A stretch of DNA of 10,402 nt from a virus, in the UHGV virus genome UHGV-0126656; one strand, 5' to 3'. The translations under genes were made by a program, and so were the position numbers. Below the pieces are notes generated by a model that saw only the letters and a list, made by a program, of their open reading frames with translations, was not told the origin of the DNA and searched no databases. Shown here piece after piece: positions 2,194 to 10,366 of the stretch. Each line of letters begins with the position of its first letter. The stretch's first letter is position 1.

Positions 2194-4398
2194 TTAACGC
2201 CGCCGTGGTTGTAACATGCCTCCAGGTCTTTGCGACTCGCGCTGCATCAGGCGCATTGCTGTGTTTTCTATAGTCTGTTGCAACGCTTTTGAGTCGTCTT
2301 CAGTCCAGCCGTTTGTCGCCTGGATGTTGTTTGTTACGTTCAGTGTGATGCCGCCACCACTGCCAACCAGATCGCGGCCCGGTGTAACTCGTCCACCCTC
2401 GCCGGGGATCATGTACTGTTTCCCGCCAGTAGAGGTAAATAACTCAGGGACACCGTGCTCACCAACCCTGTAAAGATTGCCACCGTTAACCGCGCCGCCG
2501 TTGTAGCGACCACCGCCAAACAAGCCAGTAATGCCAGCCATCAAGGCGCTGATAGCTGACATTGCGACCATCGGGGCCGTCCCCATTGTCGCGGTAGCTG
2601 TCGCCGCTGCTGCCGGGGCCATTGATGATGCGATTGATGCGCCTGTTGCCGCTGCTGTTGCCGCTTGTCCGCTCATTGCGCTGGCGCTGGCTGCCTCGCT
2701 TAAGATCATTTGTTTGACGTATTCAGCGCCCATCTCAGCGATACTTCCCACCACTTTTCCGAGAATGGTAGTCCCGATATTGGCGAAAGCGGTTTCCAGG
2801 TTCTGCGTACCATTAAGCAGGCCGACAACGGCATTTGTAGCGCCACCACTCAGGCCATCAGCCATGTCACCAATCAGGCCATTAATCCCACCTTGCGCCC
2901 GGAATTGTTCCCACTGCGAGGCAAGCAATTCTTCTGCGTGCTGTTGTTTAAGCGCGTTTAGCGTTTCCTCGTTAATCATCTGTTTGTTGAATAGCTCATC
3001 AGCCTGTTGCATTTCAAGGGCATGGCGTTGTTTGAGCGCATCAACGGGATTAAATTGCTCATTAAGCTGTTTTGCTTTTTCTTCCAGTTCGATTTGATGC
3101 TCACGCGCGGCGTTTGTTTCGTAAATCAGGTGCGCAAGGTTTTTCATCTCACTAACCTGTTTTGCCGTTGCGTTAGCGCCCATTTCCTGAACGGCGTCCC
3201 ACATTTCAGCCTCTTTGCTACCCTCAGCAAAGCCCTGGTTAAGTCGTTCCAGTTCTGCGCGTTTCCGTTTCAGCGCTTCTTCTGCCGGATCTTTCTGCGC
3301 GCGTTTCGGTTTATTGCCACCTCCACCGCCATTGTCTTTCAGCTTAATATCAGTGGTGGCCTGCTGTGTCGGTAGCGTTGACACAAAACCCGTAGATTGA
3401 TTGTCTGGCGCTGCGCCTAAGAAGTCGGTTTGTTTGGCTTGAGCGCGGAATAAATCAAGGCCCGGCACAAACGGCTCAAAGGCTGCGGCAAGTGTCCATA
3501 ACTTATCAGCCAATGACGCAGAATCAGATTTCAGCGTTTTAAACCAGCCGGATAGCTCGCGGCAATAATCAGCCAGCGTTTTAATACCGCGACCGACCAG
3601 TTCAGTAACATGCAGCGTCTGGTCGATGGTTTCCAGTAACAGGCTAAAATTTGTTGATAGCTCTGTCATTGCCTGTTCCGTGGTTGTCGGCAGCTTGTTA
3701 AATTCTTTTTCGATTTCGCCTGATCCTTTCAGGATTGCATTTACTACATCCTCAGCCGTCAGTTTGCCATCCAACATGCGGCGACGTAGCTCACCCATTG
3801 AGATCCCCATCTGACTTGCTACGCGCCGCCATAGCTCCGGCATACCCTCCAGGATGCTGTTAAATTCCTCAGCACGGACAATACCGCCGTTAATAGATTG
3901 CCCTAACTGTCGCAAGGCGTTTGCGGCTTCTTCGGATGAACTACCACCAATACGCCCGATCTGCTGTAGTGTCTCTGTCAACTGTAAGATCTGGCCCCCG
4001 GTAGCGTTTGCATCAGACAAAGCTGAAGTAAGGCTTTCCCATAACTTAGTAGTATCCTCAATCTTCATGCCAGTTCGCTTGCTGATCTCAAGAATGCCGC
4101 TAAAATTAGCCTTAGCTTCAACCAGACTACCGGATAGCCGGGATACACGGGCGCGTAGTAGTTTTACGTTGTCCGCGATTTCAATAAAGCGTTTAGCCGC
4201 CATCATTAGCAGGCCAACGTTAACCGCCGCCGCCAGTTTGCTGATTGTCGTATTCAGTTTGTTGATTGAGTTATCAGCGCGCTTTGCGCCGCGTTCAATG
4301 CGATCGAATGCGTCGTCAGCTTGTTTCCCTGCGGTTAATAGCTTCCCTGTGCGCGCATCAACCTCATAATAAATTCTACCTACGTTTGTGTTACTCAT
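2194..4398 (-). CDS. Phage tail tape-measure-like protein (734 aa)
   Basis: Long, mostly helical protein with an N-terminal region typical of tape-measure domains (GMPELWRRVASQMGISMGELRRRMLDGKLTAEDVVNAI), a Gly run (GGGGGNKPKR), a coiled-coil middle, a C-terminal Ala/Gly/Thr/Ser-rich hydrophobic stretch and a Gly-rich tail (LYRVGEHGVPELFTSTGGKQYMIPGEGG). Classification is by resemblance; no search was run. Confidence 0.75.
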   Translation of the reverse strand: MSNTNVGRIYYEVDARTGKLLTAGKQADDAFDRIERGAKRADNSINKLNTTISKLAAAVNVGLLMMAAKRFIEIADNVKLLRARVSRLSGSLVEAKANFSGILEISKRTGMKIEDTTKLWESLTSALSDANATGGQILQLTETLQQIGRIGGSSSEEAANALRQLGQSINGGIVRAEEFNSILEGMPELWRRVASQMGISMGELRRRMLDGKLTAEDVVNAILKGSGEIEKEFNKLPTTTEQAMTELSTNFSLLLETIDQTLHVTELVGRGIKTLADYCRELSGWFKTLKSDSASLADKLWTLAAAFEPFVPGLDLFRAQAKQTDFLGAAPDNQSTGFVSTLPTQQATTDIKLKDNGGGGGNKPKRAQKDPAEEALKRKRAELERLNQGFAEGSKEAEMWDAVQEMGANATAKQVSEMKNLAHLIYETNAAREHQIELEEKAKQLNEQFNPVDALKQRHALEMQQADELFNKQMINEETLNALKQQHAEELLASQWEQFRAQGGINGLIGDMADGLSGGATNAVVGLLNGTQNLETAFANIGTTILGKVVGSIAEMGAEYVKQMILSEAASASAMSGQAATAAATGASIASSMAPAAAATATATMGTAPMVAMSAISALMAGITGLFGGGRYNGGAVNGGNLYRVGEHGVPELFTSTGGKQYMIPGEGGRVTPGRDLVGSGGGITLNVTNNIQATNGWTEDDSKALQQTIENTAMRLMQRESQRPGGMLQPRRR

Positions 4399-5382: not shown

Positions 5383-5925
5383 TCAGTACCGAATCCCTAT
5401 CGCATTGAATACGCGTTTCCGTTGCTCAGCTTCAGGATCGGCGGCCATTTCTGGTTCTGGCTCCGGCATAGACGGGGCGGCATCAAAATGCTCAATTTCA
5501 CGACCGAAATACGAGTTCAGGACAATACCTGCCGAACTATCCACTCCATCAAAATAGCGACGCTGTTCCTCGGTGAGACAGCTACCCAGACGTTCCTCAA
5601 CCTGCGCCATAAACTCAGCATCCGGTGAGAAGTACTCATCCGGAGTCGGAGCACCGCTCTGTTTGTGCATCTCCATTTTCTCTGCGTTCGTTTTCAGCCC
5701 GGCAATGCGTTTCTCCAGTCCGGCGGCTTTAATAGCGTCAGCAACGATTTGTGGGATCTGCGGTTTAATTGTTTCGATAACTTCATTGCTGATTAATTTA
5801 AACTGGGCCATACGGATCGCTTTAATCTGCTTATTTAACAGTGCGCGTTCCCCTTCGTTGGCGGTTTTATCACGCTGTGCTACCAGTTCATCGCCTTTGT
5901 TTGTCAGTACATCAAATGCGTCCAT
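5383..5925 (-). CDS. Hypothetical acidic protein (180 aa)
   Basis: ATG at 5925 with a GGAGGAG Shine-Dalgarno and 8 nt spacer; starts 17 nt after the stop of the upstream gene. Acidic, Pro/Glu-rich C-terminal segment (MPEPEPEMAADPEAEQ). A tail assembly chaperone or scaffold-like role is speculation only. Confidence 0.6.
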   Translation of the reverse strand: MDAFDVLTNKGDELVAQRDKTANEGERALLNKQIKAIRMAQFKLISNEVIETIKPQIPQIVADAIKAAGLEKRIAGLKTNAEKMEMHKQSGAPTPDEYFSPDAEFMAQVEERLGSCLTEEQRRYFDGVDSSAGIVLNSYFGREIEHFDAAPSMPEPEPEMAADPEAEQRKRVFNAIGIRY

Positions 5926-6345: not shown

Positions 6346-6537
6346 TCATTGGTGGCGAGCGCCTTTGTTTTTATAGAATTCCAAAATCTCAGATCGGATA
6401 AACTTAATTCGTGCACCGACCGGAGTAACCGGAACGGGCCAACCTTTAATCTTGTTAATCCAGCGGAATATAGTGCGTCGGGTAACGCCGAATAAAGCGG
6501 CTACCTCGTTCACCGTCATTAATTCGCTATCATTCAT
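6346..6537 (-). CDS. alpA: AlpA-family prophage regulatory protein / excisionase-like HTH (63 aa)
   Basis: Translation MTVNEVAALFGVTRRTIFRWI... is a typical AlpA/Xis-type helix-turn-helix. GAGGTGA Shine-Dalgarno 4 nt before the ATG. Sits where AlpA-like regulators are usually found in P4-integrase islands. Confidence 0.8.
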   Translation of the reverse strand: MNDSELMTVNEVAALFGVTRRTIFRWINKIKGWPVPVTPVGARIKFIRSEILEFYKNKGARHQ

Positions 6538-6851: not shown

Positions 6852-7971
6852 GCCTGCAATCACCACATCAAAACTAATTAAAATTAGATGCCGTTTAAAC
6901 GCAATATAACGCATTCTGACGGCCTTAATTTTTGGCAATGCATTTGCTCAGGTGTGATTAGATTGATTCGTCTGGCGTGGAATGGTGCGGCGGTAATATC
7001 AGATCTCAGCGTTCTGTGTGGCGATTCCTCAGCTCTGAGGAGTGGGCGTCCGTCATTCAGTCTCAGCACCTTGCTCAAACGAGATCGGCTGCGATGGCGT
7101 TGTAGGCCGCATTCTGTCGTTTAATGAGACGTGCCTGATTGGACAATCTGAAATCTGGTTGGTGAGACTATTCAGGCGAGACTGTTCAGCGGGGAAAGCG
7201 GCGCATGTCGATGAATCCATTCCTGGATTAATCGGCGTTGTTCCGGTGTCTGGTGAAAATTTAATGAAATCGCATCAATTATAATGCGTCTAAATCGCTC
7301 TGTGGCGACGTGAAGTTTTCAGGTAAGCAAGTGCGGTTATATGTGTTCATCGCGTTACAGGCACCATTCCGTTCGAATTTGGCACGGTCAGGATGGTTTG
7401 CGGTGGTCGGCGGCGGGGATAAACTTGCTTGAGTGGTCACCTCAGCCTGCTGTGCGTCGTGTGATGGTACTGTCTGCACCTGGCTATACGCTGCTTTGCT
7501 GCTGTTTCCTGTCTGGTCTGTATACGCGATAAAACCCATCGGCTTTACAGTGAGTGAGTTTTTTGCGCTTTGCTTTCCATTCGGTTTGCTTACTGCTGCT
7601 GTGTGTCTGTGCGGTAGCTCAGAAAGCTGTTGACGATAACCATCACTGCTAAGCCCGTCTTTTAAGCTGGCAATTGCTCGAAGCCTTCCGAAGGCCCACC
7701 AATAAGAAATCACCCTTTGAGATATACCGCGCTCCCCATGAACGAATGCCATGATGGTTTGTTGGTCTGCTGTTCAGGTTGTACGTGAGTGAATGGGCGT
7801 TTCCAGCTTGCTGGAAATGATTGCGCTAATCAGCATGGTTAATGCTCGCAACCAGCCGACCTATCAGGCGGCGAAATAATTCTTCTGTTTAACTCTAGGC
7901 GACTCTCTATGACCGACCGGGAGGCTAAAAAACTCCCGTCGCCTAGAATTCTTAATAGTAGAATTCTTACT

Positions 7972-8082
7972 CGGCAACTTTTGACCCACCCTAACGGCAA
8001 CTTTTGACCCACCAATAACGGCAACTTTTGACCCACCTGAAGGCATAAATTGACCCACCCTAACGGCAACTTTTTACCCACC
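7972..8082. repeat. Iteron array (about 5 direct repeats, 23-24 bp period), putative replication origin
   Basis: AACGGCAACTTTTGACCCACC repeats beginning 7972, 7993, 8017 and 8062, with a degenerate copy at 8041..8059. Flanked at 7944..7969 by two TAGAATTCTTA repeats and at 7918..7938 by a hairpin. Lies just downstream of the Rep-like gene and its terminator. Confidence 0.7.
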
Positions 8083-8102
8083 TGAATTCATGGAATTAAG
8101 GC

Positions 8103-8129
8103 AAAGAAAAGGCGGGAACATTGCCCGCC
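8103..8129 (-). terminator. Rho-independent terminator after the Rep-like gene
   Basis: Minus strand: hairpin GGCGGG/CCCGCC (plus 8111..8129) followed by TTTTCTTT (plus 8103..8110), immediately after the stop at 8138. Confidence 0.5.
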
Positions 8130-8137
8130 TGATTCCG

Positions 8138-8665
8138 TTATTTCATGTTGTACGGCTTGAATAATAACTGGTATTCGTTGCACTCCCTTTCTGCCGATCC
8201 TGGTATATAGCCTTCAGTACGCTCAACAAGTTTGAAGTGGTTGACCAGACGATCGAGGCATTTTTTAACCGTGTTTTTTGATAGCCTGGCTCGTTTGTCG
8301 ATTGTTCCCCTACCAACCCTGCACCATCCCAACGGTGAGTTTTTGCCAGTACCAGCGAAGTAACAAAGAGCACGTAGCACAGCCTCGTCGTTGACTGTAT
8401 GTTCTTTCTCCCATCTTTCGTACAGTTTGCGGGGCAATACTTCATCAAGTCGGTTCAATGTGTCCAGGTAGCGCAGGTTGCCACGCCAGGCTTGCTCCTG
8501 CTGTTTTGCCTCGTGATGATCTGTTTCCTCGTGATTATCTGGCGTGTGTTCTTCGTGTTTAGTCTCTTCGTTTTTGGGTGCTTTATTCCGTAACTCGTTA
8601 ATTTTATTTAAAAATTGACGAACATCATTGTTTGTTTCTTGTTCTACTGCTAGCATATCAGACAT
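8138..8665 (-). CDS. Putative iteron-binding replication initiator, winged-helix (phage O N-terminal-like), 175 aa
   Basis: The ORF track starts at 8779, but the ATG at 8663..8665 (MSDMLAVEQ...) has an AAGGAG Shine-Dalgarno 8 nt upstream and is preferred. C-terminal segment (AVLRALCYFAGTGKNSPLGWCRVGRGTIDKRARLSKNTVKKCLDRLVNHF) resembles winged-HTH replication initiator domains; acidic His/Glu-rich N-terminal region. Function inferred from fold-like motif plus the adjacent iterons. Confidence 0.5.
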   Translation of the reverse strand: MSDMLAVEQETNNDVRQFLNKINELRNKAPKNEETKHEEHTPDNHEETDHHEAKQQEQAWRGNLRYLDTLNRLDEVLPRKLYERWEKEHTVNDEAVLRALCYFAGTGKNSPLGWCRVGRGTIDKRARLSKNTVKKCLDRLVNHFKLVERTEGYIPGSAERECNEYQLLFKPYNMK

Positions 8666-8839
8666 GAGAAATTCTCCTTTAGCTTGTTTCTCATACCGCC
8701 CCCGGAATGTTGCAGCATGCCGGGGGCTTTTATTTGTGTTGATCCTATTTTCGAACTCTGGATCTTTCGTTGCAAACATGGATTTAAGTTCTTGATATTG
8801 AATAATTTATTCCACTTAATTGGAATAATGGAATAATTA

Positions 8840-8868
8840 GCGAAAAAGAAAAGCCGGACGAATCCGGC
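8840..8868 (-). terminator. Rho-independent terminator downstream of the integrase gene
   Basis: Minus strand: hairpin GCCGGA-UUCG-UCCGGC (plus 8853..8868) followed by TTTTCTTTTT (plus 8840..8852), about 100 nt past the int stop. Confidence 0.5.
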
Positions 8869-8969
8869 AAATTGAATACAGGTTTCTTATCAGGTGATAG
8901 TTAAACCACACAAAACAAATGCTTATACAAAATGCAAAATTGCGCTTTGCAAAAAAGCCGCTTAATTAT

Positions 8970-10178
8970 TCATTCCGGTTCTAGAGGATTGCCGTTACCT
9001 GCCAATATTGAATCAATAGCGTCGGCGTAATCCTGCATCATTGCTCGCCGTTGCTTCAGGTAGGCCGCCTGGTTATAAATCGCCCTGATTCCCTTTGGAA
9101 CATGGGCCAATTGGATTTCGACCCAATCAGGGTTATACCTGCCGGATTCGTTAAGCGCCGTGCTGAATGTTGTGCGCCAGCCGTGGCCTGTAACCGTCGA
9201 TTTGAATCCGATACGCTCCAGGGCTTTAAGGATGGCACTGGCTGAAAGTGGCTTATCCATGAATCGACCAGGGAACACAAAAGCACTGTATCCGCTGCGG
9301 GTAAACTGGTCCTGTAATAGCTCGACCGCCTGCCGGGATAGCGGGACCACATGCGGGCGGCGGGCCTTCATGACTTCAGCGGGTAGGGTGATGGTTGCCG
9401 ATTCCAGATCTACCCACTCCCAGCGCATTAAACGCAGTTCTGCGGTCCTTAGGGCGCTTAATATAAGCAAACGTATTGCCGTCTGAATCTGAACGCTCCC
9501 GGCTCTCTCAAGGGCTTTGTAGAAGGCCGGGATTTCACTAATTTGCAGCCATGCGTTATGACCTGGGCGTCTGGCTTTCAATGCCGTGTCCAGATCTGCA
9601 ACCGGATTTCTGCTAACCAGTTCGGTGATAACGGCAAATTTGAAGATCTCCCCGATACGCTGGCGTAATTTCCTGGCCTGTTCCGGTGCGGTGCGCTCTT
9701 TCTTCTGAAGCAATGCCAGTACGTCACGGGCGGTTATATCAACGATTGAACGTTTTCCCAGCACGGTGTAAACATCTTTCTCTAGTGCCGATCTGACCTG
9801 CTTTGTATAGCTCTCACTCCAACCGCTCACTCTGGTAGCAAACCAGTCTTCCGCTACCGTCTTAAAACTTGCCGCCATGTTGAGCGCATCAATGGCTTTC
9901 TCCTTGCGCGCTTCTTCCATTGGGTCAATTCCCTGGGCGATGAGTAAACGGCTCTCTGTGGCGCGTTTACGTGCTTCCTTCAAGGTAATCAGCGGATATA
10001 CCCCAATAGCCTGTAACCGCTCTTTCTTGTCTATCCAGTACCGGAATCGCCAGTATTTGCTGCCATTGGGATGCACCAGCAAGAACAGGCCAGGTGTCTG
10101 TGAATCGGTGAGTTTGTAGGGCTTGTCCTTCGGCTGGGCGGCCTCTATGCCCTTTGCTGTCAGTGGTGTCTTGCTCAA
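8970..10178 (-). CDS. int: Tyrosine recombinase, P4-type phage integrase (402 aa)
   Basis: N-terminal arm-binding signature (PYKLTDSQTPGLFLLVHPNGSKYWRFRYW) and C-terminal catalytic region (HGWRTTFSTALNESG ... VEIQLAHVPKGIRAIYNQAAYLKQRRAMMQDYAD) characteristic of P4-family integrases. Start codon is TTG at 10176..10178 with a GAGGT Shine-Dalgarno 8 nt upstream. Confidence 0.9.
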   Translation of the reverse strand: MSKTPLTAKGIEAAQPKDKPYKLTDSQTPGLFLLVHPNGSKYWRFRYWIDKKERLQAIGVYPLITLKEARKRATESRLLIAQGIDPMEEARKEKAIDALNMAASFKTVAEDWFATRVSGWSESYTKQVRSALEKDVYTVLGKRSIVDITARDVLALLQKKERTAPEQARKLRQRIGEIFKFAVITELVSRNPVADLDTALKARRPGHNAWLQISEIPAFYKALERAGSVQIQTAIRLLILSALRTAELRLMRWEWVDLESATITLPAEVMKARRPHVVPLSRQAVELLQDQFTRSGYSAFVFPGRFMDKPLSASAILKALERIGFKSTVTGHGWRTTFSTALNESGRYNPDWVEIQLAHVPKGIRAIYNQAAYLKQRRAMMQDYADAIDSILAGNGNPLEPE

Positions 10179-10366
10179 AACCGGATACCTCGATCTAACG
10201 ACTCGATAACCCCGCTCATGTATCCGGCGCGTTCGGTTGCGTTCGGCAGGATAAGTAACGGGCGTATTAAGGGGAACACCTTACAGCACAAGGGCTAACG
10301 ATGAAATAGAATTGTTCGAATGCTGGAAGAAATGTTACTCATCACTTCTTCCTGAGGGAACGACTT

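Follow-up and report, generated by a model that had tools for sequence, protein, structure and literature searches.

A conserved array of phased direct repeats 3′ of yffL in CPZ-55-type islands of Escherichia coli: a candidate iteron origin

In the origin of phage lambda, the iterons precede an AT-rich segment and an inverted repeat; annotated with spacings of 20, 24 and 23 bp, these iterons lie inside the O gene, and O binds them by its N-terminal winged-helix domain, with its C-terminus recruiting P-DnaB. In the integrase-bearing SaPI/PICI islands the origin, made up of iterons and an AT-rich region, is found immediately 3′ of the initiator gene, and Rep and ori form allele-specific pairs. 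In SaPIs, iterons are present to either side of the AT-rich region, and Rep, a helicase that loads itself, works together with a primase. Iteron plasmids (the RepA_N plasmids pSK41/pTZ2162, and those with RepE, Pi or TrfA) display phased direct repeats of variable copy number with a winged-helix initiator encoded alongside. In Vibrio cholerae, the PLE has neither a helicase nor a primase, and its RepA binds iterons and drives replication only during phage infection (PMC7145576). The iterons of RepA_N proteins have been described as semi-palindromic around an A-tract (PMC7145576), and the RepA/ori pairs of PLEs are proven to be swappable cognate modules (PMC8263062).

We uncovered a locus with a comparable layout in a viral genome, UHGV-0126656, of which the analysed stretch of 10,402 nucleotides is hereafter called the window. 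It contains one complete CPZ-55-type island of ~10.3 kb situated between eutA and eutB: the target duplication of CPZ-55 is the 8-bp sequence TCAGGAAG (PMC6379469), and its presence as a direct repeat at 48-55 and 10348-10355, i.e., at both island ends, indicates that the island is entire. Over positions 7700-8800, the identity with the E. coli K-12 yffL locus (in the cryptic prophage CPZ-55, at eutA/eutB) is 97%, and the exact mosaic of the window was found in no complete E. coli genome, the best match having 90% coverage and 93% identity. All the island genes are on the minus strand, with a long non-coding stretch between yffL and the AlpA-like gene in the gene order, and the gene set is more reminiscent of a phage satellite or interference element than of a decayed prophage. 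The small island is devoid of capsid and tail genes despite its tape-measure-like protein, and some relatives (L003, L004, L021 and L023) add genes for an Sf6-type small-terminase-like protein, an HNH endonuclease and an HK97 gp10-like protein. Near the eutA-side end, a ~40-bp unit, AGTGAWTGGYCTGTATAGCAAAA with a GC-rich hairpin after it, occurs three times (130-170, 973-995 and 1883-1922). Direct and inverted repeats of TTATTCCA / TGGAATAA between int and yffL (~8805-8850) are candidate regulatory or integrase arm-type sites; they recur near-identically (TGGAATAAATTATTCCAATAT) in the distant metagenomic element L007 (2560-2670), whose integrase is only 45% identical.

Features of the CPZ-55-type island in the window, from the int side to the eutA side
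Feature	Position	Strand	Remarks
P4-type tyrosine integrase (int)	8970-10178	-	
yffL, putative iteron-binding protein	8138-8779	-	annotated as 213 aa
Intrinsic-terminator-like hairpin of yffL	8100-8130	-	AGGCGGGCAATGTTCCCGCCT and T-run; identical in both module types
Candidate iteron closest to yffL	8064-8082	+	CGGCAACTTTTTACCCACC; one mismatch to consensus
Candidate iteron, class-B variant	8041-8059	+	AGGCATAAATTGACCCACC; conserved as its own class in other islands
Candidate iteron	8019-8037	+	exact CGGCAACTTTTGACCCACC
Candidate iteron	7995-8013	+	exact CGGCAACTTTTGACCCACC
Candidate iteron	7972-7990	+	exact CGGCAACTTTTGACCCACC; abuts the AT-rich element
AT-rich element	7944-7969		two 11-bp direct repeats TAGAATTCTTA (7944-7954 and 7959-7969), 15 bp apart, each with an 8-bp palindrome AGAATTCT
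Composite hairpin	7895-7946		outer inverted repeat CTAGGCGAC/GTCGCCTAG (7895-7903 and 7938-7946) enclosing an inner 6-bp stem CGGGAG/CTCCCG (7918-7923 and 7933-7938)
Conserved non-coding block past the hairpin	7690-7894		1-2-nt indels between islands
AlpA-like HTH gene	6346-6537	-	
Tape-measure-like gene	2194-4398	-	734 aa, PF20155
Several orphan ORFs, second small DNA-binding gene, 259-aa ORF		-	

The first-pass annotation had described an iteron array here, of a 21-bp unit at a period of 23-24 bp. Tandem repeats with this period are confirmed: Tandem Repeats Finder returns a single array at 7972-8082 (period 23, 4.8 copies, score 150), which resolves into five phased 19-bp repeats with start-to-start spacings of 23, 24, 22 and 23. 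The 19-mer CGGCAACTTTTGACCCACC has 4 matches with at most 3 mismatches, as against 0.01 expected, and none of 200 shuffles reached 4. The 21-bp unit itself holds only in part, as the first copy (7972) is without its ‘AA’. The copy that had been called degenerate is indeed divergent, but it is not a product of random decay, belonging instead to a second conserved repeat class (GGTCAATTTATGCCTTCA) seen in 6 of 13 distinct arrays. Two ORFs across the repeats (7839-8081 and 7864-8058), already suspected of being spurious, do exist and are artefacts, because the array length shifts by 23-bp steps between strains. The array is placed directly 3′ of the yffL terminator, a terminator-like hairpin (8130-8110 on the minus strand) separating it from the yffL stop codon. 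Its 19-bp tandem direct repeats, phased at ~2 helical turns (5 copies in the window, 2-8 in relatives), agree with iteron origins, whose repeats are of ~17-22 bp, and the repeat, GGTCAA-AAG-TTGCCG, is semi-palindromic and converges on an A-tract in the manner of RepA_N iterons.

We compared the homologous place in 26 loci drawn from complete E. coli genomes, metagenomes and Logan assemblies. In the collected loci the array always starts 29-40 nt past the yffL terminator and ends at the AT-rich pair, with 2, 3, 4 (K-12), 5 (window), 6 or 8 copies. A comparison of the iterons across related islands had been proposed as a check on the array, and it came out in its favor: in 46 units from 13 distinct arrays, conservation amounts to 96-100% at every position of the 18-nt core GTGGGTCAAAAGTTGCCG (minus strand), as opposed to 52-85% in the linkers. 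An extra exact copy of the core is present ~110 nt upstream of the yffL start in 9 of the loci fetched, where a 14-mer is very unlikely to occur by chance; it is missing from the window and K-12, in which the upstream region has been replaced. This upstream repeat is likely to be an operator of yffL. Searches of 50,697 phage records, of PLSDB plasmids and of IMG/VR recovered no similar array apart from a captured CPZ-55 copy on a plasmid, and mimicry of a helper-phage origin was rejected on account of this absence from phage, plasmid and viral-contig collections. The captured copy (L020; NZ_KY751926.1, 86570-93044) is borne by the Klebsiella pneumoniae IncFIA/IncR plasmid pHK02-026, extends from int to yffS directly between ISEc23 and mphA, and encodes proteins that do not differ from their K-12 counterparts; the plasmid may have acquired this copy during a stay in a K-12 host, or the copy may stem from an error of assembly. 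In L004-L006, the yffL-repeat module has 2 repeats with a GGTT core variant, and the island adjoins ychJ-purU, not the eut operon; yffL is near one element end there, indicating that the module occurs in islands with another integration site or another permutation.

A second version of the module occupies the place of yffL in ~30 E. coli genomes. This type-2 module codes for a 255-aa YffL homologue (29% identity over the C-terminal domain, E = 5e-10) and has the same terminator as type 1, which is followed by one or two copies (23 bp apart) of a different repeat, TCCCGAAAATCGGTA, then by ~100 bp of AT-rich DNA, longer than that of type 1, and finally by the conserved block shared with type-1 islands. 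The type-2 repeat, TCCCGA-AAA-TCGGTA, is again an imperfect dyad around an A-tract. The type-2 island L024 and the window share 92% identity in Int, 94% in the AlpA-like protein and 98-100% in p108 and p180; across the swap in general, Int remains 91-95% identical, unchanged by the repeat type, and type-1 islands with very different downstream genes have the same repeats. Given that Int, the AlpA-like protein, p108 and p180 are constant across the swap, the repeat type follows the YffL-like gene only; such a repeat specificity that follows the adjacent gene is the behavior of an iteron origin, here seen as co-variation of two module types (n = 2). Because the repeat type tracks the YffL-like gene alone, we argue that the repeats are the predicted binding sites of YffL, which we hold to be highly probable. 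The same co-variation excludes sites for the terminase, the AlpA-like protein and the integrase; arm sites of the integrase were further rejected as the array is ~2.3 kb from the att end. That the repeats of both types are imperfect dyads around an A-tract suggests that a dimer occupies each site.

The two AT-rich repeats and the hairpin with a 6-bp stem that had been reported beside the array are both present. The AT-rich element is a local minimum of duplex stability (30-mer dG -30.9 vs a window mean of -40.6, sd 3.5), with 28 bp (7944-7971) of ~75% AT, and is one of ~30 equally unstable spots in the window. It is kept in all type-1 islands and is a candidate DNA-unwinding element or second protein-binding site; its palindromes could simply be the site of another protein. 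The hairpin region, taken as single-stranded DNA, folds better than all 200 shuffles (z = -3.4), and in type-1 islands its stems are invariant, every change being in the loops. The block beyond it is not coding, since the islands differ there by 1-2-nt indels, and its portion from ~7690 to 7826 is common to both module types. As a whole, the ~300 nt after the repeats (7690-7971) are strongly conserved and non-coding, with several hairpins (e.g., TTTCCAGCAAGCTGGAAA); an Rfam scan of 6900-8900 recovered no relevant RNA family, the non-coding block included. Two further candidates in this region were discarded: a 157-aa ORF on the minus strand (7279-7752) as a real gene, as relatives carry 1-2-nt indels in its reading frame; and retention of the two-tier hairpin of the window (7823-7862) by covariation in the replaced block of L015, L021 and L022, for which folding yielded differing minimum-energy structures with z of -0.8 and -0.6.

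The gene preceding the array had been called Rep-like in the first pass. Its product probably starts not at 8779 but at 8665 (M39, 175 aa): a good Shine-Dalgarno sequence, AAGGAG, precedes this ATG, the homologues start there, and the 38 codons upstream (8663-8779) are not conserved as protein. YffL has no Pfam or NCBIfam match, and its own PHROG matches are weak, namely phrog_186 (DnaD-like helicase loader, 3e-4) and phrog_270 (replication initiation protein, 1e-3); in each case the match falls on the end of the replication protein that binds the origin. When 1.8 billion representatives were searched exhaustively with HMMER, the family proved to comprise just nine proteins, only one of which is distant (P0014, 33% identity to YffL). 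Word-index searches with the family profile or with P0014 alone added no further relatives, and scans of GTDB genomes and metagenomes recovered only E. coli-type loci, with none in IMG/VR. P0014, whose contig ends 79 bp after the gene and thus short of any repeats, matches Pfam HTH_36 (26.5 bits; cut-off 25) and nine PHROG replication-initiator families (2e-8 to 5e-4), two of them ‘O-like’. The PHROG and P0014 matches point to replication initiators and give the Rep-like label a coherent, though weak, footing. The type-2 protein has no Pfam or PHROG match; RepA_N (PF06970) matches neither it nor YffL nor P0014; and a profile comparison of YffL with lambda O by hhalign is not significant (E = 0.06).

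The full-length structure model of YffL is unusable (pLDDT 38.7). The N-terminal part of the protein is of low complexity; residues 95-213, modelled with P0014 in the alignment, give a classical winged helix at pLDDT 83. Foldseek searches against viral models retrieve HTH proteins of phages, 220-300 aa in length, several of which are annotated as replication protein O or simply as replication protein. Against the PDB they are not discriminating, with winged-helix matches that include MarR, CRP, CodY and TubR, the best structural match being the N-terminal domain of staphylococcal RepA (4PTA). Sequence searches of the PDB return only generic winged-helix regulators at non-significant E-values, and no recognisable recruitment or partner domain is seen in YffL, whose domain order, with DNA binding assigned to the C-terminus, is unusual. 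The evidence, weak but consistent, places the modelled winged helix nearest to the iteron-binding domains of replication initiators. The reading frame of yffL is intact in most islands, and the gene is transcribed in K-12 (PMC5811629). One Logan contig encodes a protein (P0008) in which the first part of YffL, up to GWCRVG, is joined with the C-terminal end of the 180-aa protein encoded at 5383-5925 of the window, implying a deletion that removed the winged helix, the repeats and ~2.5 kb.

Comparison with the described systems reveals parallels with each of them, PLE being the closest. As far as its sequence tells, the CPZ-55-type island resembles PLE in being a small integrative element that encodes only a putative initiator and no helicase or primase, in having semi-palindromic, A-tract-centered direct repeats in a non-coding region, and in its swappable initiator/origin module with a presumed dependence on a helper; moreover, the PLE authors cite the very domain (4PTA) that ranks first among the structural matches of the YffL domain. 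However, the repeats are of 18-19 bp at a 23-bp period rather than ~30 bp, the recombinase is a P4-type tyrosine and not a serine recombinase, and YffL, having no Pfam RepA_N match, carries its DNA-binding domain C-terminally, whereas that of RepA_N is N-terminal and accompanied by a host-specific C-terminal domain. The likeness to lambda lies in several ~18-19-bp iterons with internal dyad symmetry at 20-24-bp spacing, in the AT-rich segment and inverted repeat that come next, and in the winged helix, predicted in the case of YffL; unlike in lambda, the repeats are 3′ of the gene, past its terminator, the winged helix is not N-terminal, and the island has no gene for a P- or DnaC-like loader. 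With SaPI/PICI the island shares the integrase, the siting of the array and AT-rich region immediately 3′ of the putative initiator gene and the allele-specific pairing, but YffL (175-213 aa) is without an NTPase domain and the repeats are on one side only. Iteron plasmids are paralleled in the phased repeats beside a winged-helix gene, in the copy-number variation and in the likely autoregulation via an iteron-like operator; the island differs from them in its chromosomal integration, in the absence of a DnaA box and in its single winged-helix domain.

Taken together, we favor, with a confidence somewhat above even, the reading that the array, the AT-rich element and the hairpin constitute an iteron origin to which YffL binds, in an island that resembles a satellite and depends on a helper. 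Of the claim that this is a classic origin architecture after the terminator of an initiator gene, the repeats, AT-rich pair, hairpin and terminator stand; on the other side, the initiator matches are weak, and a DnaA box (TTWTNCACA) is absent from the whole window. Also speaking against an origin are the shortness of the AT-rich element and its lack of distinction among the ~30 equally unstable spots, the C-terminal position of the DNA-binding domain in a YffL that shows no recruitment domain, the 1-2 repeats of the type-2 module, and the limitation of the co-variation to two types. Both module types do have an AT-rich segment past the repeats. No helicase, primase, loader or partition genes are recognisable in the island or its relatives, and domain searches of all island ORFs, yffL included, revealed nothing of the NTPase, helicase or primase kind. 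CPZ-55 excises in <1 in 100,000 cells (PMC3105296), a mobilome-sequencing study recorded no CPZ-55 activity and no extrachromosomal signal, and the literature yielded no report of CPZ-55 replication beyond this low-frequency excision.

From these features we infer a course of binding, unwinding and replication with the aid of a helper. After excision, YffL dimers would bind each 15-18-bp semi-palindromic site (GGTCAA-AAG-TTGCCG) via the C-terminal winged helix. With the sites phased at about every two helical turns, the bound YffL would form a nucleoprotein complex, which could destabilise the adjoining AT-rich segment and bring about its opening. Loading of a replisome would follow. Since genes for a helicase, a primase and a loader are all missing from the island, this replisome would have to come from outside, from the host or, more probably, from a helper phage. 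In the many relatives with a single upstream iteron, YffL may additionally repress its own gene.

The main rival to the origin reading is that the array is an operator, with YffL being a winged-helix transcription regulator, e.g., an island repressor or activator, that controls int-yffL read-through or the downstream late genes, and the upstream copy serving self-regulation. The fold is indeed common to many regulators, such as MarR, CRP and CodY, and the array sits between a terminator and a ~300-nt conserved, leader-like non-coding block; the lack of replication genes in the island and the sufficiency of 1-2 repeats in the type-2 module would be as expected for an operator. The single repeat upstream of yffL in many relatives fits it too, but does not discriminate between operator and origin, because initiators commonly autoregulate as well. 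Against this stand the sequence-level family matches of YffL and P0014, all of which are to replication initiators and not to regulators, the up to 8 phased copies, unusual for an operator, the failure to find a sigma-70-like promoter beside the array, and the AT-rich segment after the repeats in both module types. We accordingly accord the operator a limited, though by no means negligible, probability.

Plasmid centromeres, too, can consist of phased direct repeats to which small winged-helix proteins bind, and TubR is among the Foldseek matches; hence, the array might alternatively be a centromere-like site or, given the Sf6 small-terminase-subunit-like genes in relatives of the island, a packaging-related site, bound by YffL or a terminase small subunit. 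Yet no NTPase of the ParA, ParM or TubZ type was found in the island, and the terminase-like genes vary or are absent (the window has none), with the repeats remaining constant and their type following the YffL-like gene only, so that we deem either version very improbable. A functionless relic, i.e., a tandem duplication passed on by inheritance within a cryptic prophage in decay, could be argued from the decayed state of the K-12-type islands, in which the region past the array is pseudogenised or non-coding, and from the drifting copy number and the loss of the upstream repeat in the window and K-12. Such a relic is hard to reconcile with a core far better conserved than the linkers over the 46 units, with the existence of a second conserved repeat class, with the parallel layout of different sequence in the type-2 module, and with a gene that is transcribed in K-12 (PMC5811629) and has kept its frame in most islands; it too appears quite unlikely.

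Neither these repeats nor a function of YffL came up in the literature searched, and the array has not been reported for the CPZ-55 element. The conceptual gain is modest, as modules of this kind are familiar, and the interest stems mainly from the location in E. coli K-12 and the direct testability, for which nature provides two specificity types that can be swapped and compared. More speculatively, and with considerable doubt on our part, the CPZ-55-type islands, including that of K-12, might represent an unrecognised family of phage satellites, in which a minimal, sequence-orphan winged-helix initiator, YffL, and a swappable iteron origin would fire only by hijacking the replisome of a helper phage; the two specificity types and the 2-8 copies might then reflect an arms race with origin-targeting counter-defences of helper phages. 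In K-12, yffL is a gene of unknown function and CPZ-55 passes for an inert cryptic prophage. If the origin reading is true, this y-gene would gain a function, YffL being an iteron-binding initiator and the yffL-yffM intergenic repeats its origin, and CPZ-55 would be a possibly mobilisable, helper-dependent replicon residing in the most used laboratory strain.
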